Positions 1 through 64,000 of a DNA stretch of 64,000 nt are shown here, piece by piece. The stretch spans positions 10,374-74,373 of the IMG/VR virus record IMGVR_UViG_3300037153_000324; one strand, 5' to 3'. Under the pieces are notes generated by a model. The model saw nothing but the letters and a program-made list of their open reading frames with translations, ran no database searches and was not told the origin of the DNA. The stretch comes from a virus. Made by a program: the position numbers and the translations under genes. Each line of letters begins with the position of its first letter. The stretch's first letter is position 1.

Positions 1-1
1 G

Positions 2-160
2 ACCGCAAAGAAGGTCAAGAAATACACTGATCCGTACGCTTGCGTTTTCTGCGGTCACAGTGTAGATATGCACATTCGCCGTCCAACTCCCTCCTGCCGT
101 GTAATCAAACTGGGTACCGGAGAAAAATGTAAATGTCAGGGGTTCAACAGAAAACCGTAA
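2..160 (+). CDS. Partial (5'-truncated) small Zn-binding protein
   Basis: Hand translation of frame 2: ...YACVFCGHSVDMH...SC...KCKCQGF*; CxxCGHxxxxH...C...CxC pattern common in phage small proteins. Confidence 0.5.
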   Translation, partial: TAKKVKKYTDPYACVFCGHSVDMHIRRPTPSCRVIKLGTGEKCKCQGFNRKP

Positions 161-345
161 AATTACCGTTCAAGCTCAGCGCTCAGGTGAAAGGAGTGCA
201 AAAGGCATATGGGCGTTTTGTCCAACAGTACGGCCAAGGTGAAGGCACTCGTATCTTCTTGGCGAAAGCCAAAGAGCAGGGAAAAGGAAAAACCATCCGA
301 CAAAAAGTAATTAGCGTCTACAAGAAGGGTGCGAAATTGAACTAG
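133..345 (+). CDS. Small basic hypothetical protein
   Basis: ORF track; Lys-rich; true start uncertain. Confidence 0.5.
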   Translation: MSGVQQKTVKLPFKLSAQVKGVQKAYGRFVQQYGQGEGTRIFLAKAKEQGKGKTIRQKVISVYKKGAKLN

Positions 346-346
346 C

Positions 347-730
347 GTGCCCAAGCACAACCCAACAGCCAAGGGCTTTCCTCCTGAAGCCGAAGTCGTC
401 AGAGCGGATGAAATGAGAGCCGTCCTGCAACGAGCAGAGCAAGAGCATCTGTCCAACCATAATTACAGTCCCGACGGTCATCGTATCAACACTCTGCGCC
501 CTGTTGGCCCGAAGGACTGGCTTGCTCAGGACACAGGACTGAATCGCCGCACTATTCAGCACATCATGAATGACGGCCAGAAATACATTGGCCTCTCGGT
601 AGCCGACAAGATTTTGACTGGCCTTGAGCTAACCCATTTGCTCGGTCGTGAAATTACTGTGATCCCCAACCCAAGCTGGTCGCTAGAGCGCTGGCAGCGG
701 TACATGGACGAGCGCGGATGCCGCCGTTGA
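347..730 (+). CDS. XRE-like helix-turn-helix protein
   Basis: WLAQDTGLNRRTIQHIMN...IGLSVADKILTGL resembles a Cro/C1-type HTH. Confidence 0.55.
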   Translation: MPKHNPTAKGFPPEAEVVRADEMRAVLQRAEQEHLSNHNYSPDGHRINTLRPVGPKDWLAQDTGLNRRTIQHIMNDGQKYIGLSVADKILTGLELTHLLGREITVIPNPSWSLERWQRYMDERGCRR

Positions 731-754
731 CATAGGTCTATATGTGCTACAAAT
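727..754 (+). promoter_or_regulatory. Putative sigma70-type promoter
   Basis: TTGACA (727-732) followed by TGcTACAAAT; spacer is short (15-16 nt). Confidence 0.35.
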
Positions 755-793
755 CAGGTGTCTTGCCTCACTCTCGGGCGGACGTTTCGGGCC

Positions 794-822
794 AGGGGGC
801 GGAGAAATCCGCCCCCTCTTTT
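794..822 (+). terminator. Intrinsic terminator
   Basis: AGGGGGCGGA-GAAA-TCCGCCCCCT 10-bp stem with GNRA loop, followed by CTTTT. Confidence 0.75.
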
Positions 823-884
823 GTTGCCGGAATGAAAAATCGTTATGCTGCGGATTTCCGCGTAAAGCCCACAGGAAGAAGGCG

Positions 885-3174: not shown

Positions 3175-4684
3175 ATGGCGGAAAGTTTGGGAGCAGGTAA
3201 TTTCACCGTGGAGTTGGTTTCTTGATGGAGGAGTGCGCTCTACGGTAAGGGCTGTTGGCCTGAAATTCTGGCCTCCCAGGCATCCGCTCTACGAAGGCAC
3301 CATTGTCAACTTCGAGCTTACTCGTCAGCTTTACCGAAATTCTGGTGACGCAGCACTTGGCACGGCATTTGCCAAACCGATTGTCGATCTTCAAGTGCAG
3401 TTCATGGGTTTACCGCTTGCATCGACTGGCGACGAGGCAATCGACACGTTCCTGAACGAATGTCTGCATACCTATTGGGTTGATGAAATTCAACAGGGTA
3501 TGCGGGACTCTATTCGTGATTCACTTGTAATTATCCGGCTACAACAGCCGGATTTGTTTGACCCGCTCATGACAATCGAGGAGCAAGAGCATTGCACAGT
3601 CGAATGCATTGCACCCGAGCGCGTACAGATCGAGCGTGACGTTGCCAATAAGCGCATCATTCGGAAGGCAATCGTCAGTCACAGAATGCAATTTGTAACA
3701 GATCCCGGCAGTGTCACCGAGGGTCGTGAACCGATTGTCGAGGAGCATGAAGTCCTTGAAATCATCACACGGGACACGTACCGCTTCTTCGACCAGAACA
3801 CGAACGAATACATCGACTCGCTAGGCGCTCCGAACCGCTGGAATTTCGTGCCACTTTTGGAAGCGTGGAACGAGTGGGATACGGCTCTGCAAGGCGGAAT
3901 GTCTGACCTAGAGACTGTAATTCCATTCATGCAGGCTTTTCACGACGTACTAACGCAGGGGTTACAGGCGCATAAGTATCACTCGACCCCGAAGTTGAAA
4001 TTGCGGCTCTCGGATGTTCTTGCATTTATTCGGGCGAATTTCCCGGATATCATCGACCCCGAGACAGGCGACGTGATACCGAATGCGACGATCAACTGGA
4101 ACGGTCGTGAAGTCCTGTTTTTCCAGGCAGAGGATGACGCAGGTTTCATCGAGGCCAAATCGGTACTCAACGACACCAAGACGTTGCTGGAATTTCTGAT
4201 TGATTGTATTTGCATTGCTAGCCAGACTCCTGAGTGGGCTTTCATGCGGGTTGATAGTGGCTCTGCAAACTCCGACCGCAACGCGCAGACCGTTCCGTTC
4301 GTGAAGAAAATCGACCGGAAGCGTAACGGTCATGCGAAGTGGATTCAGGAGCTTTGCAAGATGGTGCTCGTCTCTCAGAACGAAATTCCACATCGACCGA
4401 CGATTACTTGGCAGATGATTCGGGTTGATGACGAGGTTCTTTTCATGCAGGCATTTCAGCAACTCGTCATGGGGTTGGAAGTCGCTGCGGCCAGGGGTGA
4501 AATCTCAGACGAGACATACCGGAAGATGATAAAGCAGTTCCTTCCGGCGATGAAAAATACGACGCAGGAAGCCATCGACGCTCAGAGAGACTTCAGAGCG
4601 CAACAGGTGCAACAGGCGGCTCTCAATCCGGCTCCTACGCAACCGCTACCCGTTCAGGGTGGCCCACAAGGCTCCAACGAATGA
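3167..4684 (+). CDS. Portal protein
   Basis: 505 aa after terminase; FAKPIVD..VQFM, FVPL..., G.SDLE.VI features typical of SPP1/Gp6-like portals. Confidence 0.8.
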   Translation: MSRWRKVWEQVISPWSWFLDGGVRSTVRAVGLKFWPPRHPLYEGTIVNFELTRQLYRNSGDAALGTAFAKPIVDLQVQFMGLPLASTGDEAIDTFLNECLHTYWVDEIQQGMRDSIRDSLVIIRLQQPDLFDPLMTIEEQEHCTVECIAPERVQIERDVANKRIIRKAIVSHRMQFVTDPGSVTEGREPIVEEHEVLEIITRDTYRFFDQNTNEYIDSLGAPNRWNFVPLLEAWNEWDTALQGGMSDLETVIPFMQAFHDVLTQGLQAHKYHSTPKLKLRLSDVLAFIRANFPDIIDPETGDVIPNATINWNGREVLFFQAEDDAGFIEAKSVLNDTKTLLEFLIDCICIASQTPEWAFMRVDSGSANSDRNAQTVPFVKKIDRKRNGHAKWIQELCKMVLVSQNEIPHRPTITWQMIRVDDEVLFMQAFQQLVMGLEVAAARGEISDETYRKMIKQFLPAMKNTTQEAIDAQRDFRAQQVQQAALNPAPTQPLPVQGGPQGSNE

Positions 4685-4827
4685 GAACCCGGCCAGCAGT
4701 ACCGAGAATTGGGCGTAGAAGGAAATTGCGTGTGAAAAAGACCGCGAGACGGACGATTGCCGGAAAGCGTAATCCGAAGCAGCTTTCGGCCGCACTGGGA
4801 CGGAAGAGAGTGAGGAGACGCAGATGA
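4681..4827 (+). CDS. Protamine-like Arg/Lys-rich mini-protein (48 aa, not in ORF track)
   Basis: MRTRPAVPRIGRRRKLRVKKTARRTIAGKRNPKQLSAALGRKRVRRRR; ATGA overlaps with the portal stop and the next start. Confidence 0.6.
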   Translation: MRTRPAVPRIGRRRKLRVKKTARRTIAGKRNPKQLSAALGRKRVRRRR

Positions 4828-4967
4828 GCAGGATCAACACAGTTCCGGGTGGCCGTGTAATTTCAGGTTACGGTGGCCCGATTCAATGGCTCAGAGAAAC
4901 GAACGGCCGGAAGATTGCGAGAATTACACCAACTCTCGGATTTTTTGGGAGGTTGATCCGCAGGTAA
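4824..4967 (+). CDS. Small basic protein (47 aa, not in ORF track)
   Basis: MSRINTVPGGRVISGYGGPIQW...GRLIRR; GAGGAG SD; TAATG coupling to the next ORF. Confidence 0.55.
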   Translation: MSRINTVPGGRVISGYGGPIQWLRETNGRKIARITPTLGFFGRLIRR

Positions 4968-5161
4968 TGGCACGAAAGCGCAGTGGAATCAAGATCAAGA
5001 AATCTCACCAAGGCCGCTTGCGAAGAAAAGCGGGTACAAAGAAGGGAAAGAAAATCCCGGTTTCCAAGCTCCGCTCGATGAAGAAGAGTAAAAGCGCAGC
5101 AACTCGTCGTCAGGCGACATTCGCCCTGAACGCGAGACGCTGGAATCGCGGAAGGAGGTAA
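4967..5161 (+). CDS. Small highly basic protein
   Basis: MARKRSGIKIKKSHQGRLRRKAGTKKGKKIP...; GGGAGG SD; no acidic residues. Confidence 0.65.
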   Translation: MARKRSGIKIKKSHQGRLRRKAGTKKGKKIPVSKLRSMKKSKSAATRRQATFALNARRWNRGRR

Positions 5162-11960: not shown

Positions 11961-12451
11961 TGCCACAGTATATTGCGATTCCAAGAGCAACGAGCAACCC
12001 ATTTGAAGTCATCGAAGTTGCACTGACAGCTTCTCTCAAGACTGTGTTGCAGGTAAAGCCGGTTACGAAAGACCTTGTAATTTGTGGGTGGGGAATTTCA
12101 ACAGATGGGAATGCTTCGGGTACACCATTTGTTGCTGATCTTTGCGCAACTGATGTAGCGGCTACTGTTACAGCGCTTACACCTGACCTGTGGGAGAACG
12201 AGGACGCTGTAGCAGCGCTTGCAGTGGGTGGAACATCGGCCACGGGCTACAACGCATCGGCTGAAGGAACAATTGCGGCGTTTCGTATGTTCGATGCGCA
12301 GGAAATTCGGCCAGATGGTGATAAATACGTGATGTGGTTCCCATTGAAAGAACGGCCGAAGGTTGCGGCTGGTGGATTTGCTCGGGTCAGGGCGCACTAT
12401 TCTGCAACAGGCGTCAATTGCCTTCCTTGGTTGGTGTTTGACGAAACGTAA
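11960..12451 (+). CDS. Virion structural protein (putative)
   Basis: Beta-rich, coupled gene in the structural operon. Confidence 0.5.
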   Translation: MPQYIAIPRATSNPFEVIEVALTASLKTVLQVKPVTKDLVICGWGISTDGNASGTPFVADLCATDVAATVTALTPDLWENEDAVAALAVGGTSATGYNASAEGTIAAFRMFDAQEIRPDGDKYVMWFPLKERPKVAAGGFARVRAHYSATGVNCLPWLVFDET

Positions 12452-13188
12452 TGGGTTCTCGTTCGATTACTCCTGAATTTCTCATGTTGCGAAATAGTGC
12501 TTCGCCAGTTGGCGGCACTTTACCTACGGGTGCATTTGTAAATGGCGCAGATGCAACGGGGTTTGCGACAGGTGCTCGTACACCACGGGATTTGATTCCG
12601 TTCATGGGTGTAGCAACAAATATATTTCTCTCCTTTACGTCTAACCCTGACACGAATCCGCAAGCGTGGGGGTTGGGGCGTTGGGTTTCACGACCATTGC
12701 GTGCCCCATATTCAGTAAACGTAAATTCTCTAATACAATTTACTTTTGCACAAGGAAATTCTGCTCATCAAGCAAATTATTACGCTTGCGGATATATCTG
12801 GCGTCCGAGCACAGGTGTACAGATTGGCAGTGTGGTTGAAGGTACTGCTGGTGCAATAGGCTCTACATCACTACAGTGGTCAATTTCTGTTCCAGTAATT
12901 GCATCGGCAGATAGGGCACTGGTTCAAGATGGTGATGTATATGTTCTTGAGATAAGCGACAGGTTTACGCAGCAAAGCGCAGTAGCTTACACTTCTACAG
13001 TGTATTTTGATGGGCAAGATCCTCCTACGTCGCCTATTACCAGTCCCGCTTCTTCAGTTAGGTTTTCTGCAATTGTAAATGGGATTCGCACAGGGATAGC
13101 AGTACAGACTGCTGAGAATATTTCTGTTGCTGAAATGTATTCTTACCCCAAAAGCATTGCTCGCAATAGAGTGGCGGTGTATAGCTAG
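12451..13188 (+). CDS. Virion structural protein (putative)
   Basis: Ser/Thr/Gly-rich, coupled gene. Confidence 0.5.
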   Translation: MGSRSITPEFLMLRNSASPVGGTLPTGAFVNGADATGFATGARTPRDLIPFMGVATNIFLSFTSNPDTNPQAWGLGRWVSRPLRAPYSVNVNSLIQFTFAQGNSAHQANYYACGYIWRPSTGVQIGSVVEGTAGAIGSTSLQWSISVPVIASADRALVQDGDVYVLEISDRFTQQSAVAYTSTVYFDGQDPPTSPITSPASSVRFSAIVNGIRTGIAVQTAENISVAEMYSYPKSIARNRVAVYS

Positions 13189-15833
13189 TGCCCCGTCGCG
13201 GTAGATCCTGGCCTGCACGTCCATACGTTGAGTATTTCAGGCCGAAATTGCCCTGGATGCCTATTGGCTCGGGAATTTCGCAAAAGTCTAGCTCAGGTGT
13301 TTGCAATAGGAGTCTCAGTACGCTTGTTGACTCATTCGATGCAATGCTCGACAGCACGAAGTGGCCTGATTCGACCGCAGGGGTCGTTTGGGATGCCGCT
13401 GGCCGAGTAAAACTCCCTTGCACTTCTAGCTATGAGCGAATTGCTACTTCCATCTCGCTCGGAAATTTCTTTTTGACCGGCTCTGGTATTCAGGCGCAGA
13501 TAACTCCTCCATCATTCGGGAATGGTGGCCGTGAAATTTGGCTTGAGGTATCGCGGGTTGGAGTTGTAAACCAAGACAAGCTCTCCATGTGTTATTCCGG
13601 TGGCTATCTGGTCGCTCGTCAGACGGTTGGTGGGTCAACACAGAGCCAGACCACTGCTTACTATGCCGCTGGCACTCATGCTTTTTGGCGAATTCGTGAG
13701 CAGGGTGGCACAGTGTATTTCGAGACTTCCCCGGATGGCTCTACATGGAATCCGTTTTGGTCAGTTGCGCCAGCATTTGCAATTACAAATGTGTGGGCGT
13801 CAGTTCGATGTGGGTATTTTGGTACCGAATCGGCGGATAACGGCTACGTCGATAACATCAATTTCATTGCTCCGTATACGACCGCTAAAATCGAAACACT
13901 TACAGATGCATTCGATACGACGGTTGACTTTTCAAAATGGAATTGGTCATCGGGTTCTGTGGTTTGGGATTCTGGCGCAGGTGGTCGAGCAAAAATCCCA
14001 TGTGCCACATCTTATTACTCTCTTGCTACAGCAATGACAGGGCCGTGGTATGACCTGACTGGCTCAGCAGTATTTGCGAAAATGACACCGCCGCCGAATG
14101 GCGCGGGTTCGCGTGAATTTTACATCGAAGCTCTCCGTGCAACTGTAAACACTGACAAAGTATCGTTCTTTTGGGCGTCAGGAAATCTTTACTGGCGCTT
14201 GACACGCGGGGGAGTGCAGATAAGCCAATCGAGCATCCCCTACGATGCAGTAAATCATGCCTGGCTGCGAATTCGCGAATCTGGTGGAACAGTGTATTTT
14301 GACACTTCACCTGATGGTGCTGTATGGACAAATAGAGCTTCGCTTGTACCAGGGTTCGATGTGTCGAAAATTTGGGTCAATTTCAGTGCTGGTTACTGGT
14401 CAACCGAATCGGCCTCGGATGCTTATGTCGATAGTGTAAATATTGCGCCGTATACTGGCGTTACTTACACAAAAGCTGGTTCGGGAATTTTAGAAAGCAA
14501 TGCGAGCGGCACAAGAGTAAAAGTTTGGAGTAAGACTGGCTCTGGAATTTCAGCGCATGCAGCAAATGGATCAGATGCTTCTACTTTTGTAGATTCAGGC
14601 GTAGGGGTTTCCGAAAACACTGGTTCTGGTTTCGAGGCGAAGTCGCATGCTGTTGTGCTAGCGGGGTCAGGAATCAAAACTCATGCTGCTAGTGGACTAG
14701 ATGCAATTACTTTTGGTAAAACCGGCTCCGGTGTCAAAGATTCGTTTGCGAACGGAGTACGTGCCCGAGAATATGCCAAAACCGGAAATGGAGTCTCAAG
14801 TCGCGTTGGTAGCGGCCAGGATGCCTTCCTGCCTATGGAGACAGGGCTAACTGTCAGGGTCGAGACTGCAAATGGCTCAAAGGCAATTACGTTTGCAAAG
14901 GCAGGTGCAGGAATTTCTGCGCGAGTCAGTAGTGGGGCCGATATTTACATATTCGGCAAGACTGGCGCAGGAATTTCAGGACGAATTGGTGGCGGAATGT
15001 ATGTGCGTGCGGGTGGAGCACAGAAGCTCGGCTCGGGAATCCGAGAAAATTCAGCATCCGGCTTTGACGCGACGATCTACTCCAAATCTGGCTCTGGAAT
15101 TCGTGCAAGCGCCGCAGGCGGTATCAGGAATTACGCGCTTGGCAAGACAGGTGTCGGAATTTCCATTCTGGCCGCGTCTGGAAGTAAAGCGCCTGTCTTT
15201 GCCAAGACTGGGGTCGGAATTAGTGCTCGAATTTCCTCTGGCAACAAAAACTATGTCGCTGGTAAAACAGGTGCAGGTATCAGCGAGCGTGCTGCTAGTG
15301 GGTCAAAACTACTGATGTTTGGGAAAACAGGCACGGGAATTTCAAGCCGTGTTGGTAGTGGAGCCACTGTCAAGTCGGTCATCTGGTTCAAGGCAGGTGC
15401 AGGGATTCGTGTCCAGTCTGCATCCGGTGTTTGGGACAAGGACGTTCTCAAGGCCGGTGGAGCAGAAAGAGTCCAGAGCGCATCTGGAACGCGAATTCGT
15501 GAAATTCAGAAGGCCGGAATTGTTGTTATGTTGCATTCGGCTGGTGGCTTCACGGTTACTCAGTTCGGTAAGAGCGGAACCGGGATTCGTGACTCAGCAA
15601 GCGGCGGCGAATCGAAGTTTGTGGCTGGAATTACCTTCACTGATGAGATATGGCTTCTGCGAGCCGGGGAATCGGATGCGATTCTGGAAGCAATTACAAC
15701 TGGCTCGAAGCCGGAGCTTGAATCCGTGTACGAAGTGCTGACGGATGATGAAATGATCGAGGCTGTGCGAACTGCGCCTGCTGAATTGGTCGAAGTTGGA
15801 CAAGGTAAAGCTGAACTAGAGAGGGTGGGCTAA
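13188..15833 (+). CDS. Fibre/adhesin-like protein: two tandem lectin-like domains plus ~19-aa repeats
   Basis: Duplicated W.RIRE.GGTVYF.TSPDG..W domain; repeated KTGSGIS.R.ASG units. Confidence 0.6.
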   Translation: MPRRGRSWPARPYVEYFRPKLPWMPIGSGISQKSSSGVCNRSLSTLVDSFDAMLDSTKWPDSTAGVVWDAAGRVKLPCTSSYERIATSISLGNFFLTGSGIQAQITPPSFGNGGREIWLEVSRVGVVNQDKLSMCYSGGYLVARQTVGGSTQSQTTAYYAAGTHAFWRIREQGGTVYFETSPDGSTWNPFWSVAPAFAITNVWASVRCGYFGTESADNGYVDNINFIAPYTTAKIETLTDAFDTTVDFSKWNWSSGSVVWDSGAGGRAKIPCATSYYSLATAMTGPWYDLTGSAVFAKMTPPPNGAGSREFYIEALRATVNTDKVSFFWASGNLYWRLTRGGVQISQSSIPYDAVNHAWLRIRESGGTVYFDTSPDGAVWTNRASLVPGFDVSKIWVNFSAGYWSTESASDAYVDSVNIAPYTGVTYTKAGSGILESNASGTRVKVWSKTGSGISAHAANGSDASTFVDSGVGVSENTGSGFEAKSHAVVLAGSGIKTHAASGLDAITFGKTGSGVKDSFANGVRAREYAKTGNGVSSRVGSGQDAFLPMETGLTVRVETANGSKAITFAKAGAGISARVSSGADIYIFGKTGAGISGRIGGGMYVRAGGAQKLGSGIRENSASGFDATIYSKSGSGIRASAAGGIRNYALGKTGVGISILAASGSKAPVFAKTGVGISARISSGNKNYVAGKTGAGISERAASGSKLLMFGKTGTGISSRVGSGATVKSVIWFKAGAGIRVQSASGVWDKDVLKAGGAERVQSASGTRIREIQKAGIVVMLHSAGGFTVTQFGKSGTGIRDSASGGESKFVAGITFTDEIWLLRAGESDAILEAITTGSKPELESVYEVLTDDEMIEAVRTAPAELVEVGQGKAELERVG

Positions 15834-39465: not shown

Positions 39466-39661
39466 CGAGCGCTATGTGGACAGGGTTGTTGTCGTCAAGA
39501 AAGGCGATCATGCTTTTGTCAGACTCGTTTCGAACAACGGTGAAATTTTGCTGGTGTCCGAAAACTTCCAGAATATGTCATGGGCTGCGGCAGTAGGTAT
39601 CAAACTGGCCGAGCAATTGGGTGTTTCCTATGAAGTGCTAGACGTGGAGGTAGCAAAATGA
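39452..39661 (+). CDS. DUF1508/YegP-like small protein
   Basis: RLVSNNGEILLVSE motif. Confidence 0.5.
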   Translation: MKMTDERYVDRVVVVKKGDHAFVRLVSNNGEILLVSENFQNMSWAAAVGIKLAEQLGVSYEVLDVEVAK

Positions 39662-41514: not shown

Positions 41515-42654
41515 TTGGCGAGGACAAGAGAGAAGTTTCAGATTCGCCGCGTCAAGTCGAAAGAGGATCGCAAGCGGCCGTCTGTTTTCATGCGATTGAA
41601 AACGGATGAGGCGTTCAAGGGTGTGGCGTTGTTCGAGCCAGATCCCGAGTTGGACGACAACCCCGGCTATTTCGAGTATTACGACCACTGGGATCAGCAG
41701 GGGCAACAGTACGTCCCTTGTGCGGGTGAAATGTGCCCCTTCTGCAAGGCGAACGACAATCCTTCGACTCGGGCAATGACCGTCTGGTATTTCCCTGAGG
41801 CGGCAGACGTGAAAGACCAGATCAAGGTTTTCACGATGAATTTCAGCACGATCAACGACATTACCGACGAGGCCGAGGAAGAGGACGGCTTGATCGGTAA
41901 GAAGGTGCGCATCAAGCGTCTGTCCGACAAGGGCGATTACAAGGTGCGCGTGCTCACCGAGAAGGGCCTGACCGAAACGCAGTTGAAAAAGGTCATGGCT
42001 CGTCTCGATGAAGTGTTCCCTGACGGTCTGGAAGGCATTACGCTCGCACAGTTGAAGCGTCAGATGGAGCGCTTGCGTGCTCTGGACGAGTTGGAGGACG
42101 ACGACGAGGACGACGAGCAGGACGAGCAGCCCAAGGCTCGCCGTGGTCGGGCAATTTCAAAGGACGAGGAAGAGGACGAAGAGGAAGAGGACGACGAAGA
42201 GGAAGAGGACGAAGAGGAAGAGGACGACGAAGAGGACGAAGAGCCGACCGACGAAGAGGACGAAGAGGAGGAAGAGGAGGAGGACGACGAAGAGGACGAC
42301 GACGAGGAAGAGGACGAGGAAGAGCAGGAGCAGGCTGAAATTACAGCGGCCGAGTACGAAGTTCTCAAGTCGAGCGAGCGTGACGACACGTTCGAGTTGC
42401 AGAACGACGAGGGCAAGGTGAAGATGTGGCTCGGAGAGAACGTCGAGGTTGACTACGACGAATTCCCGAAGGGCACGCCTGTCACCGTCTCCGCGCTTCA
42501 GGACGACGAGGGCGATTGGATCATCACTGAAATCAAGGTGAAAAAGCGTCGTGGTCGTCCGCCTGCGTCCAAGGCCAAGACGCGGACAAGCCGCGCAGCC
42601 TCGTCTCGTTCCAGCGGTTCGACTCGCGGCCGGGGTAGGCCGCGTAAGCGGTAA
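41515..42654 (+). CDS. ssDNA-binding protein (gp32-like) with acidic tract, extra OB-like domain and AT-hook tail
   Basis: HW...C...CPFC Zn core after the primase; long E/D tract; RRGRPP and RGRGRPRKR. Confidence 0.65.
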   Translation: MARTREKFQIRRVKSKEDRKRPSVFMRLKTDEAFKGVALFEPDPELDDNPGYFEYYDHWDQQGQQYVPCAGEMCPFCKANDNPSTRAMTVWYFPEAADVKDQIKVFTMNFSTINDITDEAEEEDGLIGKKVRIKRLSDKGDYKVRVLTEKGLTETQLKKVMARLDEVFPDGLEGITLAQLKRQMERLRALDELEDDDEDDEQDEQPKARRGRAISKDEEEDEEEEDDEEEEDEEEEDDEEDEEPTDEEDEEEEEEEDDEEDDDEEEDEEEQEQAEITAAEYEVLKSSERDDTFELQNDEGKVKMWLGENVEVDYDEFPKGTPVTVSALQDDEGDWIITEIKVKKRRGRPPASKAKTRTSRAASSRSSGSTRGRGRPRKR

Positions 42655-43049: not shown

Positions 43050-43382
43050 ATGACATTGCCACTTCTAACGTCCGCTCAGCTTGTCGAGGAAATTGCCGAG
43101 GATACGGGCTATTCCAAGTCCGATGTGCGGCATTTCATGGACTCGCTGGCGCGGGCGATCACGGATCATGTTTCCGATTGTGAGAGAGTCAGGATTGGGA
43201 ACCTCGTCCAGATCGAGCCGAAGTTGAAAAAAGCACAGAAAAAGCGGATGGGTCGGAATCCGGCTACAGGTGAGGACATTGAAATTGCTGCCAAGCCAGC
43301 GAGTGTGCGCGTAGGTGTTCGGCCACTCGCTGGCTTGAAGGACGCGATGCCGTCCGTGCAGAAGCTTAGGAAGCGAGTCTGA
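43050..43382 (+). CDS. HU family DNA-binding protein
   Basis: IAEDTG.SK.DV; RMGRNPATGE.I.IAAKPA. Confidence 0.95.
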   Translation: MTLPLLTSAQLVEEIAEDTGYSKSDVRHFMDSLARAITDHVSDCERVRIGNLVQIEPKLKKAQKKRMGRNPATGEDIEIAAKPASVRVGVRPLAGLKDAMPSVQKLRKRV

Positions 43383-55982: not shown

Positions 55983-56739
55983 GAAGAAATTTCCGACGCC
56001 GAGGGAGGATCGTGAACGCGGTTGGGCGGCGCTTGGGTTCGATATCTCGCTGTCGTCCATTGCTGGTGCAGGTGTGGGCTACGACAAAACGCTAGACCGC
56101 TACGTTGGCCCGGAATTCGTGATGGTGTCATTTGACAAGGGTACTCATTATTTCGAGCGCCTGAAAACAGCGGCACGGGCGCATGAAATTGTGATGGATC
56201 TCCTAGCGGCGCTGAAACTCTCGCTCAAACTCGATGAGATTTTCATTTCTCAGGAGGAGCCGTTTCCGCCGCACGGAGGATTCATGCGGCGAGGAATTTC
56301 ACAGTCGCTCAAGCAACAGGCCGAAATATCGGGTGCGTTTTTGGGCGGGCTGCTGCGCTTTGGCTACGTGAACATTTCACAGATCGGAAATCATCAATGG
56401 CGGCAAGTAATTGCTGCGGATCTTGGAATTACAATTCACCATTCCAAGTGGCGCAGTCCAGAGCTTGCCGCCGAGTACAACTGCAAGCCTGTTGACTCAG
56501 GGAAATTTCGTGCGAAGCAGTGGGCCGCAAATTTCTCCGAAGATCCCGTGTTCAGGAACAAGATACCGGATTGGCCTGACTTGATCGTGCGAAATGGGAC
56601 GAAAATTTCCCGACCGGATTCCTCGACCGCAAAGGCTGTGCAGTGCGATGACCGATTTGACAGTTTAGCCATCATGCAAGTTCAATTGAATGAGCTTGTC
56701 AGTGCTGGAATTGCCCCAAGGGAAGTGCGGAAAGGATGA
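55945..56739 (+). CDS. RuvC-like Holliday junction resolvase
   Basis: LGFDISLS, IFISQEE, QAEISG, W.Q.I, DDRFDSLAI. Confidence 0.65.
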   Translation: MAKPIPVRKKTPKKKFPTPREDRERGWAALGFDISLSSIAGAGVGYDKTLDRYVGPEFVMVSFDKGTHYFERLKTAARAHEIVMDLLAALKLSLKLDEIFISQEEPFPPHGGFMRRGISQSLKQQAEISGAFLGGLLRFGYVNISQIGNHQWRQVIAADLGITIHHSKWRSPELAAEYNCKPVDSGKFRAKQWAANFSEDPVFRNKIPDWPDLIVRNGTKISRPDSSTAKAVQCDDRFDSLAIMQVQLNELVSAGIAPREVRKG

Positions 56740-57227
56740 AAATTCCTTTGTATGGACGAAAAGGCATTGTTGCTTGGGCGCGAGTTTCTAGGCGTGATTT
56801 CGATTGGCTAAATGAGAATCACTGGAATTTGATGGCGAATGGTTATGCGTATCGGCGTGGTAGGAATGATGAAGGTCGAGCGGAGAGCCGTCGTATTCGA
56901 GAATGTATTTTCATGCATCGAGAAATTCTTGGCTTGGTAAAAGGTGATGGTCTACAGGTTGACCATGTGAACCGGGATAGGCTCGATAACCGACGATGTA
57001 ATTTGCGAGTGGTTATGCCAAGGCATCAAGGGCATAACATCATGCGGCATGGAAATTTCACTTCACAGTTTCGTGGTGTGGCCTGGGATCAAAAAAGTGG
57101 TAGGTGGGAATCCTACGTGCATGTTCGTGGGAGGAAATTTTCAGCAGGCCGGTTTGATTCAGAGCGAGAGGCGGCAAGGGCGGCTCAAGCTTTGCGTTTT
57201 GAGTTATTGAGCCATGCCGTTGACTAA
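56736..57227 (+). mobile_element. HNH-AP2 homing endonuclease
   Basis: MHREIL...VDHVNRDRLDNRRCNLR; SQFRGV.W.....W....G.F.SE.EAARA. Confidence 0.9.
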
Positions 57228-57255: not shown

Positions 57256-59469
57256 ATGATCGTTGACAATTTCATCTATCTCAACATTGACGAGCTTACG
57301 GAGCGCGAATGGGACAAGCTGCTCCGCTCGTTGACGTTCGAGCTTCCCAATGGCGACGTAGCCGTGGGCTATCGGCGCTATCTGACCAAGGGGTATTTCA
57401 AGCTTCCTCGCGGTGCCTGGTACCTCCTGCCGAATCATGTTCGCTATCACGACAAGCGCGTGGCTCCGGAGATGCCAGAGCTAAATTTCACTTTGAAGCT
57501 GGATGACACGGAGAAGGATGAGCGCTTCGCCGGTCAGGTCGAAGCCCTCAGTGCAATGTTCGAGAACGAGCAGGGGCAGATCATTCGACCGCCTGGCTGT
57601 ATTTCGGGTGATGCCGTGATCGAAGTCAATCGGGGCGGAAAGAGCTTCAAGACGACGATGCGTGATCTTGTCATGCGCCTGAACGGCGGGAATGTCCATT
57701 GGGGCCGAAAATGGGATCTTTCAATTCCGACGATGATCCGCGCTCGTTTCCCTGACGGAACCATTCGCTTGACTGAAATCAAGGATTCGTGGGAGTCGGG
57801 CAAGAAGGCTGTCTACGAAGTGAAAACGAAATCGGGTCGAGCGGTCAGAGCGACGGCAGATCATCCGTTCTTGACGAATCGTGGATGGCGGAAGCTGTCT
57901 CAGCTTCGGGTCGGCACGAATGTCTATGTCGATGGCGGCAAGATGAAGTGGACAGGAGAACGAAAGAAGCTTGTCTATCGTGAAATTCAAGGGTTGGTTG
58001 GTCATCCTTATGCTTTGGAGCGCCCGCACAAGGGTTATGCCCGTTGGTCGTGCCCCGCTCATCGGATCGTTGTCGAAGCCGACTTGAACAAGCTTGCGCT
58101 GGGTGAGTACGTTGATCGCCTGCGGGCAAATGAAATCAGCGGGCTGACGTTTCTCGATCCGGCTGTAGTCGTTCATCACAAAGACAACGATCCGACCAAC
58201 AACAAACTCTCCAACTTGGAAGTGAAAGAGTCGCCTAGTGCTCATGCTGTGGAGCATGGCGTAAATGGCGGCTGGCGCAGGGTAACTGCTCGTACCTCAA
58301 TTGAGGAAATTGTTTCGATTACAGAGATTGGCGTCGAGGAGACGTTTGATCTTGAAGTTGGAGATCCGAGCAATTACATTGCGAATGGGTTTGTCGTTCA
58401 CAATACGGGAAAAACCCAAGTTGCACTTGCGTTTGCTGCGGAGTGCCGCACGCGGACGCTTGTGCTTGTTCACACGGCCGACATTCTCAAGCAGTGGGTG
58501 GAGTACACCGAGAACGCAATTCCTGAGCTAAAGGGAAAGGTGGGTGTAATTCAGGGCAAGCGCTGTCAGGTCGGCCACATCACGATTGGAATGGTGCAGT
58601 CACTCGTCAAGTACACGCATGACAAGAAATTCTGGCAGCAATTTGGGTGTGTAATCGCGGACGAAGCACATCACGTCGCTGCACCCACATGGGAAGGCGT
58701 GCTCAACTCCTGCCCTGCGTATTACCGTTTCGGTTTCACGGCTTCTGCCACTAGAGCGGACGGAATGCATCCCGCAATGAAGTACATTCTCGGCCCGATC
58801 ATTTACCGGCAGAAATTCACCAGTCCGGTCAAGCTGGAAGTGGTGCCTGTCAAGACGAATTTCTATGCCCCGTATCGAGGGCGCTTTGACTGGGGAAATA
58901 TTCTTCGTGCCCTGATCGTGGACGAGGAGCGCAATCAACAAATCGCAAAGGTGGTAGACGATGAAATCAACGCCGGAAACAGTGTCCTCGTTCTTAGCCG
59001 AAGAATTGAGCATCTTGGAGCAATTGCTGAGGCTATGCAAGCACCAGTCGAAATTCTTACAGCAAGGCGTGGAAAGCATAATCGTGGACGAATCCTTGAC
59101 CAGTTTAGATCGGGGGAAATTCGATGCGTTCTTGCTACGCAACTTGCTGACGAAGCTCTCGACGTGCCAAGACTCAATCGAGTTTGCCTTGTCCACCCTG
59201 GAAAGCATGAAGGGCGAATCGTTCAGCAGATCGGACGGGCACTAAGGCAGCACCCCGACAAGAAAGATGCTGTAATTTACGACTTCTACGATCCGCGTGT
59301 GGGTGTGCTACGGCGACAGTGGGATCGAAGAAAGCTCGCGTACCGGAAGAACAAAATTTCAATTAGAAAGCGAGGCTCACTGTGGCTGTCACACGGGCGG
59401 CGAACGGACAGTACATCGTCAAGACAGAAGCCGAAGCTAAGAAAGCGCTTACGCTTTTCCAAAACATGA
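57256..59469 (+). CDS. SF2 (DEAH) helicase, intein-interrupted
   Basis: PPG|TGKT, DEAHH, TASATRADG, ALDVP.L, QQIGRALR. Confidence 0.9.
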   Translation: MIVDNFIYLNIDELTEREWDKLLRSLTFELPNGDVAVGYRRYLTKGYFKLPRGAWYLLPNHVRYHDKRVAPEMPELNFTLKLDDTEKDERFAGQVEALSAMFENEQGQIIRPPGCISGDAVIEVNRGGKSFKTTMRDLVMRLNGGNVHWGRKWDLSIPTMIRARFPDGTIRLTEIKDSWESGKKAVYEVKTKSGRAVRATADHPFLTNRGWRKLSQLRVGTNVYVDGGKMKWTGERKKLVYREIQGLVGHPYALERPHKGYARWSCPAHRIVVEADLNKLALGEYVDRLRANEISGLTFLDPAVVVHHKDNDPTNNKLSNLEVKESPSAHAVEHGVNGGWRRVTARTSIEEIVSITEIGVEETFDLEVGDPSNYIANGFVVHNTGKTQVALAFAAECRTRTLVLVHTADILKQWVEYTENAIPELKGKVGVIQGKRCQVGHITIGMVQSLVKYTHDKKFWQQFGCVIADEAHHVAAPTWEGVLNSCPAYYRFGFTASATRADGMHPAMKYILGPIIYRQKFTSPVKLEVVPVKTNFYAPYRGRFDWGNILRALIVDEERNQQIAKVVDDEINAGNSVLVLSRRIEHLGAIAEAMQAPVEILTARRGKHNRGRILDQFRSGEIRCVLATQLADEALDVPRLNRVCLVHPGKHEGRIVQQIGRALRQHPDKKDAVIYDFYDPRVGVLRRQWDRRKLAYRKNKISIRKRGSLWLSHGRRTDSTSSRQKPKLRKRLRFSKT
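57598..58404 (+). mobile_element. Intein (269 aa) with HNH endonuclease
   Basis: CISGD start, TADHPF block B, VHHKDNDPTNN.LSNL, NYIANGFVVHN end, +1 Thr. Confidence 0.92.
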
Positions 59470-59897
59470 AGGATGAAATTGACGAGATAAAGAAGGAGTC
59501 CGGTATTGACGAGATGGAACTGGATTGCGTCGAGCTAAAGCGAGCCGTTACCGCGTTCATGGTCGAGAACAGTCTCGACCGTTTGAATTTCAAGAAGGGT
59601 TTTCACGGCACGCTCGTCCGGGCGACGTATGGCGCGACGTGGATTGGTGAGCGCAGCCAGCTAACGGACGATGCGCCGGGGTATGCGGTACCGCTCAAGG
59701 AACTGCTCACAAAGAAATTCAAGCGCAGTCCTGATAAGGCTAAGAAGATGTGGCTACGTTTGACGACGAGAATTCCTGATCCCATCAAGATTGAGGAAGC
59801 CATTGCCGAGGGTGTAATTACAGTGCAGGATGTGGCACCGGCATGGTGGGAAAAAGACAAGTCCCCATATCTCCGGATATTTTCATCTGATGATTAG
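59382..59897 (+). CDS. Hypothetical protein (Gam-like?)
   Basis: N-terminal coiled coil; family unsure. Confidence 0.45.
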   Translation: MAVTRAANGQYIVKTEAEAKKALTLFQNMKDEIDEIKKESGIDEMELDCVELKRAVTAFMVENSLDRLNFKKGFHGTLVRATYGATWIGERSQLTDDAPGYAVPLKELLTKKFKRSPDKAKKMWLRLTTRIPDPIKIEEAIAEGVITVQDVAPAWWEKDKSPYLRIFSSDD

Positions 59898-60201
59898 GAA
59901 GAAAACGAAAACGAAATTGAAGCTGAATGAGCTTCCCTACGATCAGCAGTTACCAAGGCGTAGGGATCTTGCGTATTTGAAGCCGCCGAAGTTCAAGCAG
60001 TACGTGACCATTCGTGAGCTTTCAGATATCGTGGAAAAGGACATTTCATGGATTCGAAAGCTCGAACGGGACAACAGAATTCCAAAGGCGTCTCGGGTCA
60101 AGCGTGGTCGTCTCGAAGTCCGGATGTGGAGTCCGGAGCAGGTGGACGAAATCGAGCGGATCATTGCGGGCCACCACAAGGGACGACCGCGCGGCTCTTG
60201 A
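59890..60201 (+). CDS. MerR-like HTH DNA-binding protein
   Basis: TIRELSDIVEKDISWIRKLE...IP...R...R.WS.EQV; C-terminal KGRPR. Confidence 0.7.
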   Translation: MIRKKTKTKLKLNELPYDQQLPRRRDLAYLKPPKFKQYVTIRELSDIVEKDISWIRKLERDNRIPKASRVKRGRLEVRMWSPEQVDEIERIIAGHHKGRPRGS

Positions 60202-60315: not shown

Positions 60316-61173
60316 ATGGCAGCAAGACTCGCGGATCTGAGGGCACAGGCGAAGCGCCTTGGAATTCCCTCGTCCGAGATTCGCAGTGCGTCGAGCGTGC
60401 GTGAGCTTCGTGACCTGATCGCGGAGTACGACACTCCCAAGCGCACTGTCAAGCGCACTGTCAAAAAGGCTGTCGCCAAGAAGGCGACTGCGAAAAAGCA
60501 GCCCGTCCGGAGGGGTCGGCCCCCGAAGGCCAAGGCTGTGACCACTCGCAAGGCCGCACCTGCCCGGTCGCGCAAGAGCGGCACGGCGAAGCGACGGCCC
60601 GCTGCGAGCGGAAACGGTGACGGAAGGCATCTGCTCGGGCGCGTGAATTACAAGAAGCGCTGGAATGCCCGTGAGGGTAGCGCTCCCGACCAGATCATCA
60701 AGGCGCTGGCGAAGTACAACGGCGACCGCGAGAAGGTCTACTCCGTCCTCGTCAAGCGCGTGTGGGATTTCACCAACAAGATCAAGCGCGATGGCTCGCG
60801 GCGGACTCTGCCCGAGGCGCAGCAGATGTTGAAATACCGCATCGCTCGCACGGCTTGGGACTTCGCGATTCAGACCGGCCAGCACGACAAGGCCACGGAT
60901 CGCGTCGAGTACGGCACGGGCGGCACCGGAAACGGTACGTGGAAGCCCGTCACGGCGACTCGCAAGGCGACGACTCGCCGCAAGGTGTCAACGACTCGCA
61001 AGGCATCGACCGTCAAGAAGGCAGGAGCGGCCCGTAGAGGCCGTCCTGCCAAGGCGGCGGTCGTGAAGCGTGGTCGGCCTGCGAAGGCGGCAGGAGCCAA
61101 GCGAGGGCGTCCTGTGGGCAGTAAGAACAAGACCACGACTCGCGCTCGCGGTCGTGCAGCGGCTCGTCGGTAG
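60316..61173 (+). CDS. Histone H1/HMGA-like basic protein with four AT-hook motifs
   Basis: K/A/R/T-rich arms; RRGRPPK, RRGRPAK, KRGRPAK, KRGRPVGSKNK; AAGGAGG SD. Confidence 0.75.
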   Translation: MAARLADLRAQAKRLGIPSSEIRSASSVRELRDLIAEYDTPKRTVKRTVKKAVAKKATAKKQPVRRGRPPKAKAVTTRKAAPARSRKSGTAKRRPAASGNGDGRHLLGRVNYKKRWNAREGSAPDQIIKALAKYNGDREKVYSVLVKRVWDFTNKIKRDGSRRTLPEAQQMLKYRIARTAWDFAIQTGQHDKATDRVEYGTGGTGNGTWKPVTATRKATTRRKVSTTRKASTVKKAGAARRGRPAKAAVVKRGRPAKAAGAKRGRPVGSKNKTTTRARGRAAARR

Positions 61174-61179
61174 AAAAGG

Positions 61180-61217
61180 CTGAAAAACCCCGGCTGAAAT
61201 ATTCCGGGGTTTTTCAG
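61180..61217. terminator. Bidirectional terminator
   Basis: CTGAAAAACCCCGG / CCGGGGTTTTTCAG perfect 14-bp inverted repeat. Confidence 0.8.
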
Positions 61218-61268
61218 TTCTCGAAATGTCCCTAGGACAAATTCTCATCCGACAGTGAAGGAAATTAC

Positions 61269-62282
61269 ATGCAACAGAAGGATATGTACATCGGTAGGGT
61301 GGTCGAAATCGTCAAGGTTGGACGAGGCGTGCGCAGGTTGACCGGCGTCAAAGCTCGCATTGACGATTTTGGAATTCCAAGCTCGTCCTTCTCGAACCGT
61401 CACGATGAAGTCCAAATTACAATTTTGGACTCGGACGGTAATCCGGCTACTGTTTTCGATTCCACGACGGGCAATCATGTTTTCAGGATGCGCCGTGTGC
61501 TCTCGCGTGAGATAGTCTCGGTTGATGAGGCCGACGCATTGCGCGAGGAAAAAGCTGAGGCTGAGCGTATCCGAATTGAGCGAGCCGAAAAACGGCGTGC
61601 GTTGCAAGAGCATTATGAAAATGTCCTGGCCGAACTGGGTTTCGAGGAGAACGAGGTTTGGGTTGTGGCTAGGAGCAACAACAATGGCGAACCTGAAATT
61701 TCAATGTTGAGGTTCAGTGGCAACGGTGCTGAAAAGTTGCTCAAACTCCTCTACAACGGTGAGCAGGGCGAGAATGCCGACTAGAATTGCAGTCATTCTC
61801 GCCTGGTCGGCTCTGTTCGTATGGGGCATGGGTTGGAGCGGCTTGTACTGGGGGCCAATTTCATTCGGGGTAGTTGCGTTCCTGTGGTATCTTGTGTCGG
61901 ACACGCTTCACGTAATCAAGAAGGGTGTTCAGGGACTTGCAGGAACCCACGTCACGAATTACAACTTGAACGTGGAGGAGCCAGCAATCAGGGGAGAGCG
62001 CATCAACCCTGATCCGACCGGCCCGGAGATTTACCCGGCCGTCATCGAAGGGAGAAGGTACAAATGAAATATCCGCCTGTCGAGGAGATTCTGAATCGGG
62101 TGTATAGCCCGGATGATTTCGATGGACTGCCGCTCGTCATCGTGACTGAGATGGAGAACATGGGCGGCTTTGAGGTTCCGGTCGAGGGTATGACGCTGCT
62201 CGGCCCGAACTGCGTCTATTACAGCCGGACGCTGACCCGTCCCCCGTGTCCGCCGATCCTCTATCACGTCTGCCTCAACTGA
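61269..62282 (+). CDS. Three hypothetical ORFs (61269-61784; 61774-62067, two-TM; 62064-62282)
   Basis: ORF track, SD sites. Confidence 0.5.
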
Positions 62283-62382
62283 CCGCTAAAGGAAATTTGA
62301 TAGCGCATGCTAGACTTGACGTGGTGAGTGAGCAGGCCACCCTACTCACTCACCAAACGTCAACCGAGGTAAGGAGTCCGAA

Positions 62383-62901
62383 ATGAAAAAGCGAGCTACA
62401 GCCAAGATTGGCAGCGATGCGGTCAAGGGTGAATTCTTTTTCTGGAAGCCACGACCCAAGAAATCGCGCTCGACGTGGAAGCCGCCGCTCCGGAAAAAGC
62501 GCCGGTTCAGTCATATTCAGTCCAAGGCTCAGACGCCGTGGCTAGTGCGCGACGAAAACGAGCGGATCAAGCTTGAAATGGAGCAGGCCATCGCTGAAAT
62601 TGTAGTGCCGGATGGCTGGACGAAAACGGGTGATGCACTAGGTGGCATCGTCGTTGCTCGCACCAAGGGCGACAAGCGGATCAGTCGTGTAATTGATCCC
62701 GATGGAAATGTGATGAGCGAGACAGCTTTCACCGTTTCACCGCCCACTACTCAGACGTACACACAGACTCTTACGCGGCTGCTCAAGGAGGGAGACAAGC
62801 ATTTTCTCCGGTGGGCAGTCACCAATCCCGAAGCTCGCGAGCTTGCGATCAAACTCGGAGTGAAATTGCCAATCCGCAAAAAGACCCGAAAGGAGCAGTA
62901 G
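62383..62901 (+). CDS. Hypothetical basic protein
   Basis: AAGGAG SD; preceded by the 11-bp hairpin TGGTGAGTGAG/CTCACTCACCA. Confidence 0.55.
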   Translation: MKKRATAKIGSDAVKGEFFFWKPRPKKSRSTWKPPLRKKRRFSHIQSKAQTPWLVRDENERIKLEMEQAIAEIVVPDGWTKTGDALGGIVVARTKGDKRISRVIDPDGNVMSETAFTVSPPTTQTYTQTLTRLLKEGDKHFLRWAVTNPEARELAIKLGVKLPIRKKTRKEQ

Positions 62902-63207
62902 TTGTCCAGGTTTATTCTACTGTCGTCGGCTGTGGCAACATTTGTTGCGGCGCTCGCACTTGCGTTCACGGCGGCGGCGCATGCTACAGCGAATTACAAA
63001 TGGTCGCATGCACAGGAAGCTGCTGTGCTTCAAGGCTGTATTAGCAACGGTCGTGGAAATTCCAACCTCTTCTGTGTCTGTACGCTGCGCTGGTTGGAGC
63101 GGCGTTATTCATGGAGTCGGCTTGCGACGATTTATCTGCGTCGGCCGGTGTACTACACTGGTGTAATTGCTGTCAACGCCTCCCGTGCCTGTATCGCCTA
63201 CGACTGA
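62902..63207 (+). CDS. Secreted Cys-containing protein
   Basis: Signal peptide ending AHA; four Cys. Confidence 0.55.
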   Translation: MSRFILLSSAVATFVAALALAFTAAAHATANYKWSHAQEAAVLQGCISNGRGNSNLFCVCTLRWLERRYSWSRLATIYLRRPVYYTGVIAVNASRACIAYD

Positions 63208-63217
63208 GAGGAAACAA

Positions 63218-63686
63218 ATGCACATTGTCGCAATTACATTTCCACAGTCCGAAAATCCGGAGGACAGCATCACGGAGTATTTCGGCCCGTTCGAGAATTC
63301 TGAGGAGGCCGAAGATTTCATGAGGGCCGTCGAGAACGTGACCGGCGAGCAGGGTTGGAGCTTCCTGATTACTCCGCTCGACAGCCCAATCAAGACGCTG
63401 GCGGCGTTCACACAGAGGGCGAGGAGTCTTGGCTAGGTTTCGACCACTGACGCAGAGTGAGCTTTTCACGCTCAATGATCGGCTCAAGCGGCTGTTGAGA
63501 ACGTCTGACGGTTGGCTGACCAGTCCGGAGCGTGAGGCAATTACAAAAGCGCAGGAGTGCATTGAGTCCTTGTCGCACTACTCGAACAGTGACGAGAGCT
63601 TGCCTGGCCGAGAGCGTGCGTGCATCATGAAATTGCAGGATGAGATGCGCGAGCGTCAACGGATCGAGAATTACCCGTACGGTTAG
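63218..63686 (+). CDS. Two small hypothetical ORFs (63218-63436, 63429-63686)
   Basis: SD sites, coupling. Confidence 0.45.
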
Positions 63687-64000
63687 GGCAGTGCTCGAAT
63701 TTCTTTTCATCTGGACGGCCGTTTGTCTAGCAGCGGCCGTCCTTTTCATTGTGGTTGGACTGCGGAGCTAAAAGGTAATTTGACACACGATGCTACACTG
63801 TGCGTAACGAAAGGAGATGATCGAGATGAAGCCCGAGTACGTCAACAACACGGCGAGATGCAAACGGTGTGGCTCCGAGAACGTGACTTGGCAGCACAGT
63901 CCGAAGGGCAAGTGGTATCTCACCGAGGTTTTCAGGAATGAGCGCAGCGAGCTTGTCACTGACTACCGCGATTTTCATTCGGAGTATTGCGATATCCCGG

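Follow-up and report, generated by a model that had tools for sequence, protein, structure and literature searches.

We identified a short asymmetric DNA word, TGWAATT (W being A or T; reverse complement AATTWCA), which is enriched along the whole of a 64,000-nucleotide stretch of a virus genome (IMG/VR record IMGVR_UViG_3300037153_000324). This stretch, referred to as the window, comprises bases 10,374-74,373 of the complete 74,373-bp virus record, and the complete genome is called G000. G000 is a linear genome with a guanine plus cytosine (GC) content of 52% and direct terminal repeats of 127 bp, and almost all of its genes, called from open reading frames (ORFs) for this analysis, are carried on the + strand. 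Recognisable structural and replication genes encode a gpA-type large terminase (TerL), a capsid protein, a DnaB-type helicase, a DnaG-type primase and a DnaE-type polymerase. Further recognisable genes encode RecA, a PD-(D/E)XK nuclease, an intein-bearing helicase, an HNH-AP2 endonuclease, an HU/IHF-family protein, an Rpf-like transglycosylase and a collagen-repeat protein. A search for tRNA genes in G000 gave none. Two features extend over the full window:

1-64000, both strands: TGWAATT / AATTWCA, 254 sites (120 on +, 134 on -); the first sites are at 649, 1352, 1970, 2195 and 2273 on the + strand and at 461, 929, 1097 and 2276 on the - strand
1-64000: restriction-avoidance layer; TTAA, 23 six-base palindromes, GGWCC, GAAGAC and CTGGAG are absent, and CACGAG is nearly absent

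TGWAATT is enriched and under selection at the DNA level

The window contains 612 copies of AATT and no TTAA, and G000 as a whole contains 749 and none, whereas base composition predicts 248 of each for the whole genome. An earlier annotation made from the sequence (the original prediction) had counted 19 AATT and 0 TTAA in nucleotides 1-2400, and a recount gave exactly these numbers. As a null model, 69 confident genes (57 kb) were each put through 300 shuffles of their synonymous codons, by which proteins and codon usage were kept. After the shuffles AATT was the most enriched of the 256 4-mers (546 against 300, 1.8-fold, z +19), and the enrichment thereby survived the codon-preserving shuffle that had been set beforehand as the refuting test. 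The analysis of longer words led to one precise asymmetric heptamer, TGWAATT. This motif, which was observed directly, has 322 sites in G000 (4.3/kb, about one per 230 bp), compared to 15 predicted by base composition and 37 by a second-order Markov model. On the + strand of G000 the sites comprise 106 TGAAATT, 100 AATTTCA, 74 AATTACA and 42 TGTAATT. Within genes, 102 sense sites were seen where the shuffles gave 17.9 (z 23) and 122 antisense sites where they gave 18.8 (z 27), in total 224 against 37 or about 6-fold. Heptamers enclose 245 of the 612 AATT copies in the window, and because AATT beyond the heptamer exceeds the synonymous shuffles by 1.24-fold, the heptamer supplies about 80% of the AATT excess. 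The words GAAATT and GTAATT, which had been proposed as the recurring units, are parts of TGWAATT and not the selected unit.

All seven positions of the word matter, as any single substitution lowered the observed/expected ratio (O/E) from 7-13 to 0.3-3. The O/E was 7.3 for TGAAATT, 0.7 for TCAAATT, 0.3 for TGAAGTT and 1.5 for CGAAATT, and a base other than T at position 1 gave 1.5-2.2. Near-cognates changed at the outer positions were mildly enriched, as is expected for graded affinity. Clade DNA pooled to 642 kb, with 3,750 sites, showed no flanking signal beyond the word, save a mild preference for G or C just 3' of it.

The construction of the motif from synonymous choices, suggested earlier for GAA-ATT, ATT-TCA and GTA-ATT, was borne out by codon-pair counts. 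GAA-ATT makes up 86 of the 133 Glu-Ile pairs (38 expected), ATT-TCA 62 of the 120 Ile-Ser pairs (15 expected) and GTA-ATT 43 of the 86 Val-Ile pairs (9 expected), and codon pairs that build the word are overused 2-5-fold. The dipeptides Glu-Ile and Ile-Ser themselves are about 2-fold more frequent than amino-acid composition predicts. The 322 sites of G000 are distributed over ORFs (274 wholly within them), the DNA between ORFs (43) and ORF boundaries (5 across). The original prediction had placed AATT words in both orientations, in genes and between genes, and the heptamer follows this description: it occurs on both strands (148 vs 174 sites), scattered evenly along the genome, with a density of 4.1/kb within genes and of 6.3/kb in intergenic DNA (43 sites in 6.9 kb; 1.6 expected). 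The motif is under selection at the DNA level, against coding constraints.

Orientation of the sites is homogeneous along G000 and two related complete genomes, G001 and G002 (chi-square p 0.06-0.99), and there is no polarity. In these three genomes the antisense form is in constant excess (53-60%); this is their sole orientation bias, and it is expected because TGA cannot stand in frame. A check for spacing periodicity had been suggested together with the AATT claim; AATT positions showed no 10-11-bp periodicity, and neighbouring sites showed no preferred spacing, very short gaps being modestly scarce. The only recurrent arrangement consists of nine overlapping palindromic 10-mers, which is not above chance. 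Heptamer density in the intein and in the homing HNH gene is similar to that in core and in accessory genes. The longest stretch free of the heptamer (window 12094-13532, 1,438 bp) is about as large as the largest gap predicted by random placement; it spans a gene with an unusually low third-position GC of 0.32 and the start of an 881-amino-acid (aa) putative tape-measure gene. Two candidate causes were rejected. An RNA-level cause, such as an RNase E-like site, was rejected because the word sits on both strands and in intergenic DNA, and biased repair or conversion towards the word was rejected since near-cognates at outer positions are enriched and not depleted.

The motif is kept in a large uncultivated metagenomic clade of more than 70 contigs with 47-62% GC, and its distribution in this clade is a direct observation. 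The statistics of all comparisons across relatives ignore phylogenetic kinship. All 16 viral contigs with a terminase 56-65% identical to that of G000 carry the word (1.4-4.8 sites/kb, 47-60% GC), and all 29 metagenome loci recovered via the AT-hook protein described below are enriched. The complete clade genomes G001 (70 kb) and G002 (66.7 kb) have 161 and 298 sites, respectively. The word is not enriched in the outgroup, comprising three contigs (L017-L019) with a terminase 36-37% identical and G003, which has 11 sites in 47.6 kb. Between G000 and G001 or G002, which share about 50% protein identity, 11-13% of the G000 sites lie at the same aligned position, where chance predicts 0.1-0.3 sites (<1%). 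Among relatives at 76-92% nucleotide identity, sites are retained about twice as often (69%) as control heptamers, whether arbitrary or AT-rich (34-35%; odds ratio 4.1, p 5e-28). Single sites are therefore under short-term purifying selection, while the density persists in the long term. The last position of the word varies: G001, which has 407 hexamer cores, contains 103 copies each of TGAAATC and TGAAATT, and TGAAATC outnumbers TGAAATT in L003 (21 vs 11) and L004 (7 vs 5), both at 60% GC. The core shared across the clade is TGWAAT, with position 7 usually, not always, T, and because TGAAATC equals or exceeds TGAAATT in these relatives, AATT itself is dispensable.

The absence of TTAA had been presented as part of the AATT enrichment, from which it is in fact separate. 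TTAA is the most depleted 4-mer after the synonymous shuffles (0 vs 126, z -16), and it is one of many missing sites: 23 of the 64 six-base palindromes have no copy in G000 and seven more have one. The absent palindromes include the sites of SmaI, SacII, NaeI, BssHII, NarI, ApaI, AgeI, MluI, StuI and PmlI, and also those of PvuII, XhoI, PstI, SacI, BamHI, SalI, MscI, BglII and BclI. GGWCC has 0 copies in G000 against about 124 expected, GAAGAC and CTGGAG have none, and CACGAG has one. G001 lacks 28 palindromes and G002 lacks 24, with a common core and lineage-specific additions, and the outgroup G003 lacks AGCT instead (1 vs 183 expected). Among relatives TTAA is at 0 in several, at 44 in G001, at 63 in G002 and at 55 in L016 (59 expected), and the heptamer is kept throughout. 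Because the loss is all-or-none, is shared with other palindromes and differs between relatives, it is attributed to avoidance of the sites of host Type II restriction enzymes. This is a layer independent of the heptamer, an independence which was likewise observed directly. Restriction-site avoidance is known from phages as palindrome avoidance, and G000 resembles that pattern in TTAA, the 23 palindromes and several Type IIS words, in a set that varies between relatives; TGWAATT enrichment differs from it in being the opposite type of signal and constant across the clade. The avoidance profile is among the broadest that we have encountered, and it suggests that the DNA is not broadly modified.

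These data bear on the explanation that the word is a functionless by-product of TpA avoidance, restriction-site avoidance, codon usage or amino-acid composition. The dinucleotide TpA is scarce (rho 0.55), the AnTn words AAAT, ATTT and AATT are all enriched 2.1-2.9-fold, and the avoided sites forbid many alternative codon pairs, all of which would fit a by-product. The word nevertheless survives shuffles that preserve amino acids and codons (z >20) and is stronger in non-coding DNA; its specific T and G are explained by no avoided site, it persists in L016, where TTAA is normal, and its sites are kept at twice the rate of other AT-rich heptamers. The shuffles, the density between genes and the site retention exclude a compositional by-product, and a functionless by-product of any of the four kinds is exceedingly improbable.

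Phage proteins that could read the word

The original prediction listed AT-hook-like motifs with a GRP core in four proteins of the phage, together with HU and protamine-like peptides. The four hook-bearing proteins were found as described, with four motifs in the first protein below, two in the third and one each in the second and fourth. These and the other candidate DNA-binding proteins of the window are:

60316-61173, +: 285-aa protein with four RGRP AT-hook cores; candidate chromatin-like protein or motif reader
59890-60201, +: 103-aa putative stand-alone MerR/excisionase-like winged helix-turn-helix (HTH) protein with a C-terminal GRP(R) tail (KGRPR); candidate motif reader
41515-42654, +: 379-aa predicted gp32-type single-strand DNA-binding protein (SSB) with two C-terminal AT-hooks (RRGRPP, RGRGRPRKR)
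39658-39990, +: 110-aa protein with one ERGRPK motif; no family match
43050-43382, +: HU/IHF-family DNA-bending protein (PF00216 at 8.9e-18); candidate architectural partner
4681-4827 (48 aa, 46% Lys+Arg) and 4886-5161 (91 aa, 32% Lys+Arg), +: two small basic ('protamine-like') ORFs, at ORF level only

The 60316-61173 protein consists of an N-terminal three-helix domain, putatively SAP/HeH-like, a Lys/Ala-rich linker, a helical central domain and a basic tail. Residues 1-44 were modelled with a predicted local distance difference test score (pLDDT) of 80-91 and gave VIA-align Z scores of 4-5.5 to SAP domains and to the Rho N-terminal domain, scores that lie within the range of common small helical arrangements. 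The central domain (residues ~105-195) is conserved and confidently folded. Foldseek gave no match for this protein, a profile search of the PDB with its family gave nothing meaningful, and the ESM Atlas gave unnamed viral clusters only, at 0.83. The family had 177 members in the search, on clade contigs, and one homologue carries PF02178 in a precomputed annotation. The hooks vary within the family and are absent in 9 of 29 homologues; a single-protein viral scan with the hookless homologue P0141 found nothing. The 59890-60201 gene lies directly upstream of the AT-hook gene and is kept in all three complete genomes. Its profile, built from nine homologues, weakly matched N-terminal HTH domains of the MerR family in the PDB (E 0.015-0.05), and no Pfam or PHROG match was found for the protein.

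The N-terminal 190 residues of the 41515-42654 protein (pLDDT 89) matched gp32 of RB69 and T4 in Foldseek (probability 1.0, E 6e-4, template modelling score about 0.5). Its His-Cys3 zinc motif (H58, C69, C74, C77) is invariant in 34 homologues, and an uninterrupted Asp/Glu tract of about 100 residues and a small extra domain precede the hooks. The protein has no match in Pfam, PHROG or NCBIfam, and its family is small (53 cluster representatives). The predicted fold supports a gp32-type SSB with an oligonucleotide/oligosaccharide-binding core, the His-Cys3 motif and an acidic region, in agreement with the SSB assignment made earlier. The HU assignment likewise stood with the PF00216 match; the best NCBIfam rows for this protein are IHF-alpha models, below their cut-offs, and the gene is kept in the three complete genomes. 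As to the protamine-like peptides, the two basic ORFs exist. They lie in the head-morphogenesis module, just after the portal gene, and a similar 66-aa ORF ends at window position 2. The basic ORFs of the head module could encode packaged DNA-condensing peptides.

The presence of these proteins raises the explanation that the AATT minor-groove site itself is selected and is read by AT-hooks alone, either those of the phage RGRP proteins or those of a host Lsr2-type RGR protein, which would compact or mark the genome and recruit the SSB. HMGA hooks and Lsr2 both prefer AATT, and Lsr2 favours short AATT(G/C) islands (PMC8476142). Host Lsr2 moves to phage replication zones, and many mycobacteriophages need Lsr2 (PMC10066036). 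The 3' five bases of the word, WAATT, usually followed by G or C, form the preferred short site of both HMGA and Lsr2 (PMC8476142). Among the four phage proteins with hooks, a candidate chromatin-like protein and the gp32-type SSB carry RGRP hooks. In addition, the hook-bearing family is clade-specific, and G001, which has no [RK]GRP hook, has half the heptamer density and a relaxed position 7.

The hooks fail to account for the first two bases, however. The one-sided TG is strictly required (O/E 0.7 for TCAAATT and 1.5-2.2 for a base other than T at position 1, compared to 7.3), and a minor-groove hook is unable to discriminate G·C from C·G. AATT outside the heptamer is raised just 1.24-fold, and TGAAATC, without AATT, is equal to TGAAATT in G001 and commoner in L003 and L004, so some relatives drop the final T. 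Some relatives also lack hooks: the nine hookless homologues lie in DNA with an AATT O/E of 3.5, compared to 2.8 for hooked ones, and G001 has no [RK]GRP hook in any ORF, with a single VGRPR tail on its MerR-like protein, and is still enriched. Hooks are dispensable because hookless relatives, G001 included, keep the motif. Hook number showed no significant relation to the position-7 preference (rho 0.23). We know of no Lsr2-dependent phage that seeds its genome with a defined word, and an actinobacterial host of G000 is no more than a possibility. AT-hooks explain the motif only in part, and reading by AT-hooks alone is decidedly unlikely. The proposal that the phage seeds its DNA with AT-hook sites thus held in that the word contains AAATT/AATT, the canonical AT-hook/Lsr2 site, but not in the unit, which is TGWAATT with a TG left unexplained by hooks. 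The suggested co-occurrence of AATT enrichment with the AT-hook gene also held in part: family and motif are confined to one clade, but the hooks can be missing.

Possible functions of the word

Because specificity is graded, strands are symmetric, scatter is even, intergenic density is high, sites are under purifying selection and the word stays constant despite differing avoidance sets, we favour the reading that TGWAAT(T) is a binding word. Specifically, we propose, with a probability of roughly 45%, that it provides dense landing sites for a clade-conserved double-strand DNA-binding architectural protein which reads both sequence and shape and which is probably phage-encoded. That a protein reads the word, which protein this is and what a coat of it does are matters that we infer. 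The word appears to be a composite of a TG step, which would serve for base-specific readout or as a flexible hinge, and a directly adjoining A-tract (WAATT), which is short and rigid and whose minor groove is narrow. Such a groove is of the kind entered by AT-hooks, by Lsr2-type RGR loops and by the wings of MerR-like proteins, and a reader with a helix plus an arm or a helix plus a wing would suit the word. Three proteins are candidate readers: the IHF-like protein, the MerR-like protein encoded beside the AT-hook gene, and the SAP/HeH protein, whose central domain would do the reading with its hooks acting as accessory clamps. Coating or marking by such a protein could organise, compact or protect the phage DNA, or nucleate a replication zone.

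A structural parallel for a helix-plus-wing reader is BldC, a MerR-like monomer of which the wing reads AATT and the helix a nearby base (PMC5859096). BldC is a small monomer that makes a wing contact in a narrowed minor groove and a helix contact at an asymmetric site; the proposed reader would be like it in this, and the phage has a conserved, putative stand-alone MerR-like winged HTH protein beside the AT-hook gene. The two cases differ in that BldC units, AATTNNNN(C), stand in head-to-tail promoter arrays, whereas TGWAATT occurs as single scattered words without preferred spacing, and the phage protein resembles MerR domains only weakly (E 0.015). A genome-wide array of one asymmetric protein-binding word is also formed by the stoperators of cluster A mycobacteriophages and by other phage-wide operator sets. 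Stoperators are 13 bp long, have about 24-36 copies, are mostly intergenic and are oriented with transcription. Their resemblance to TGWAATT, of which the protein binding is putative, ends there: with 7 bp, 322 copies, mostly intragenic, in both orientations, the heptamer does not belong to the stoperators. A literature search for the word, as an IUPAC pattern or as plain text, returned primer sequences only. To our knowledge, scattered functional words are known mainly from bacteria (Chi, uptake sequences, KOPS, the FtsK-orienting polar sequences), and the cases known from phages are limited to weak mimicry of Chi and to operator sets of a few dozen copies.

Several results weigh against a phage-encoded architectural reader. 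There is no fixed spacing or helical periodicity of the kind that would indicate cooperative filaments. The central domain of the 60316-61173 protein gave Z scores of about 5 to SANT/HTH-like bundles, a weak and non-discriminating match, and the sequence of the MerR-like wing showed no pattern with the motif variant among the nine loci compared. Hooks do not track enrichment, hook number and AATT O/E being negatively correlated (rho -0.45, confounded with GC). The reader could also be a host factor instead of a phage protein, and strand symmetry may also be compatible with a single-strand reader such as a nuclease or helicase.

The last point leads to a Chi-like explanation, in which a helicase-nuclease that enters at the linear ends, either a host enzyme of the RecBCD, AddAB or AdnAB type or one of the phage, reads the word in single-stranded form. 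Recognition would turn degradation into RecA loading, and a dense array on both strands would protect the phage and limit spacer acquisition. We hold this account to be unlikely. Phages over-represent the Chi of their host (PMC3784561). TGWAATT is similar to Chi (RecBCD/AddAB; PMC3784561) in being a short asymmetric word of which the density and not the position is selected, which lies within coding sequence and which is a plausible self-mark of linear DNA. Its length of 6-7 nt, its over-representation in both orientations, its positional turnover and its slight degeneracy between relatives are as expected for Chi, and the linear genome with 127-bp terminal repeats encodes RecA and a PD-(D/E)XK nuclease. 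Known Chi words, however, are G-rich and exceed expectation in phages by 2-5-fold at about 0.2/kb, whereas TGWAATT is AT-rich, about 20-fold denser (4.3/kb) and far more over-represented (6-20-fold). There is no orientation bias relative to replication or the packaging site, no polarity towards the ends or any origin and no clustering near ori or pac. Moreover, Chi differs between genera, whereas the heptamer is constant across relatives whose differing avoidance sets imply different hosts. W at position 3 and the shape of the A-tract would suit duplex read-out.

We also considered that a phage or host enzyme modifies the DNA specifically at this word, by methylation or hypermodification, and that the word is dense because modified sites protect or mark the genome. 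Asymmetric words of 6-7 bp are typical of Type IIG/III and orphan methyltransferases, a form that the heptamer shares, and many phage ORFs are without annotation. Still, no methyltransferase, glycosyltransferase or base-modification gene was found among about 65 ORFs scanned, the avoidance of about 30 restriction sites argues for otherwise unmodified DNA, and modification targets are not normally enriched. The sole oxygenase, a 2-oxoglutarate-Fe(II) oxygenase (PF13640; window 33657-34130, +), adjoins a protein with collagen triple-helix repeats (34373-35014, +). It resembles a prolyl hydroxylase that accompanies a collagen-like fibre rather than an enzyme that modifies DNA. This explanation is very improbable.

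A bolder form of the landing-site proposal is that the word serves as a genome barcode free of modification, in which a phage-encoded reader of a 7-bp word spaced at about 230 bp tells phage from host DNA. This is rather unlikely. If true, the phage could single out its own genome for coating, protection, replication or packaging, or have it spared by a phage or host nuclease. Selection for the barcode would then be strong enough to alter codon pairs and even dipeptide frequencies in all genes, recently acquired mobile genes among them.

Independent of the reader, an apparently abundant soil-type phage clade maintains one heptamer at about 6-20-fold expectation in every gene. The selection visible in codon pairs, dipeptides, intergenic DNA and site retention points to a factor that reads phage DNA through a hitherto unrecognised interaction, one that is open to experiment. 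The motif offers a simple signature for spotting clade members in metagenomes, and it calls for caution with host-prediction methods based on codon pairs and k-mers. A gp32-type SSB with an acidic tract and AT-hooks is of relevance to phage replication, as is the broad avoidance profile to the evolution of anti-restriction.

Relatives, host and neighbouring genes

Megablast against the isolated phages of INPHARED gave no match to G000, and protein searches reached distant phages only. TerL is about 24% identical to that of phages of Proteobacteria and Bacillus, DnaE about 30% identical to that of actinophages, and the capsid protein about 39% identical to that of Bacillus and Clostridium phages. 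Metagenome contigs of 65-76 kb encode hundreds of terminases related to that of G000, with identities of 56-72%; scans of genome contigs with TerL and with RecA retrieved no relative. The indications for a host are split, with the Rpf-like domain and the polymerase matches leaning towards Actinobacteria and the capsid matches towards Firmicutes. The Rpf-like transglycosylase domain (PF06737) is encoded at window 36386-36988 (+), and among the control genomes Corynebacterium alone matched it. A weak CHAP-domain match, below cut-off, was found at L020:8808-9725 (+). The PF06737 domain and this CHAP match are the sole hints that the host is Gram-positive and perhaps actinobacterial.

Upstream of the window, a leftward gene pair (L020:2971-5580, -) encodes a MoxR-like AAA_5 ATPase and a DUF7192 protein, and this pair lies in the only sizeable minus-strand block of the genome. 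The ResIII/Helicase_C helicase (window 57256-59469, +) is split by an intein with an HNH module (residues ~170-383), and the free-standing HNH-AP2 endonuclease is encoded just upstream of it (window 56736-57227).

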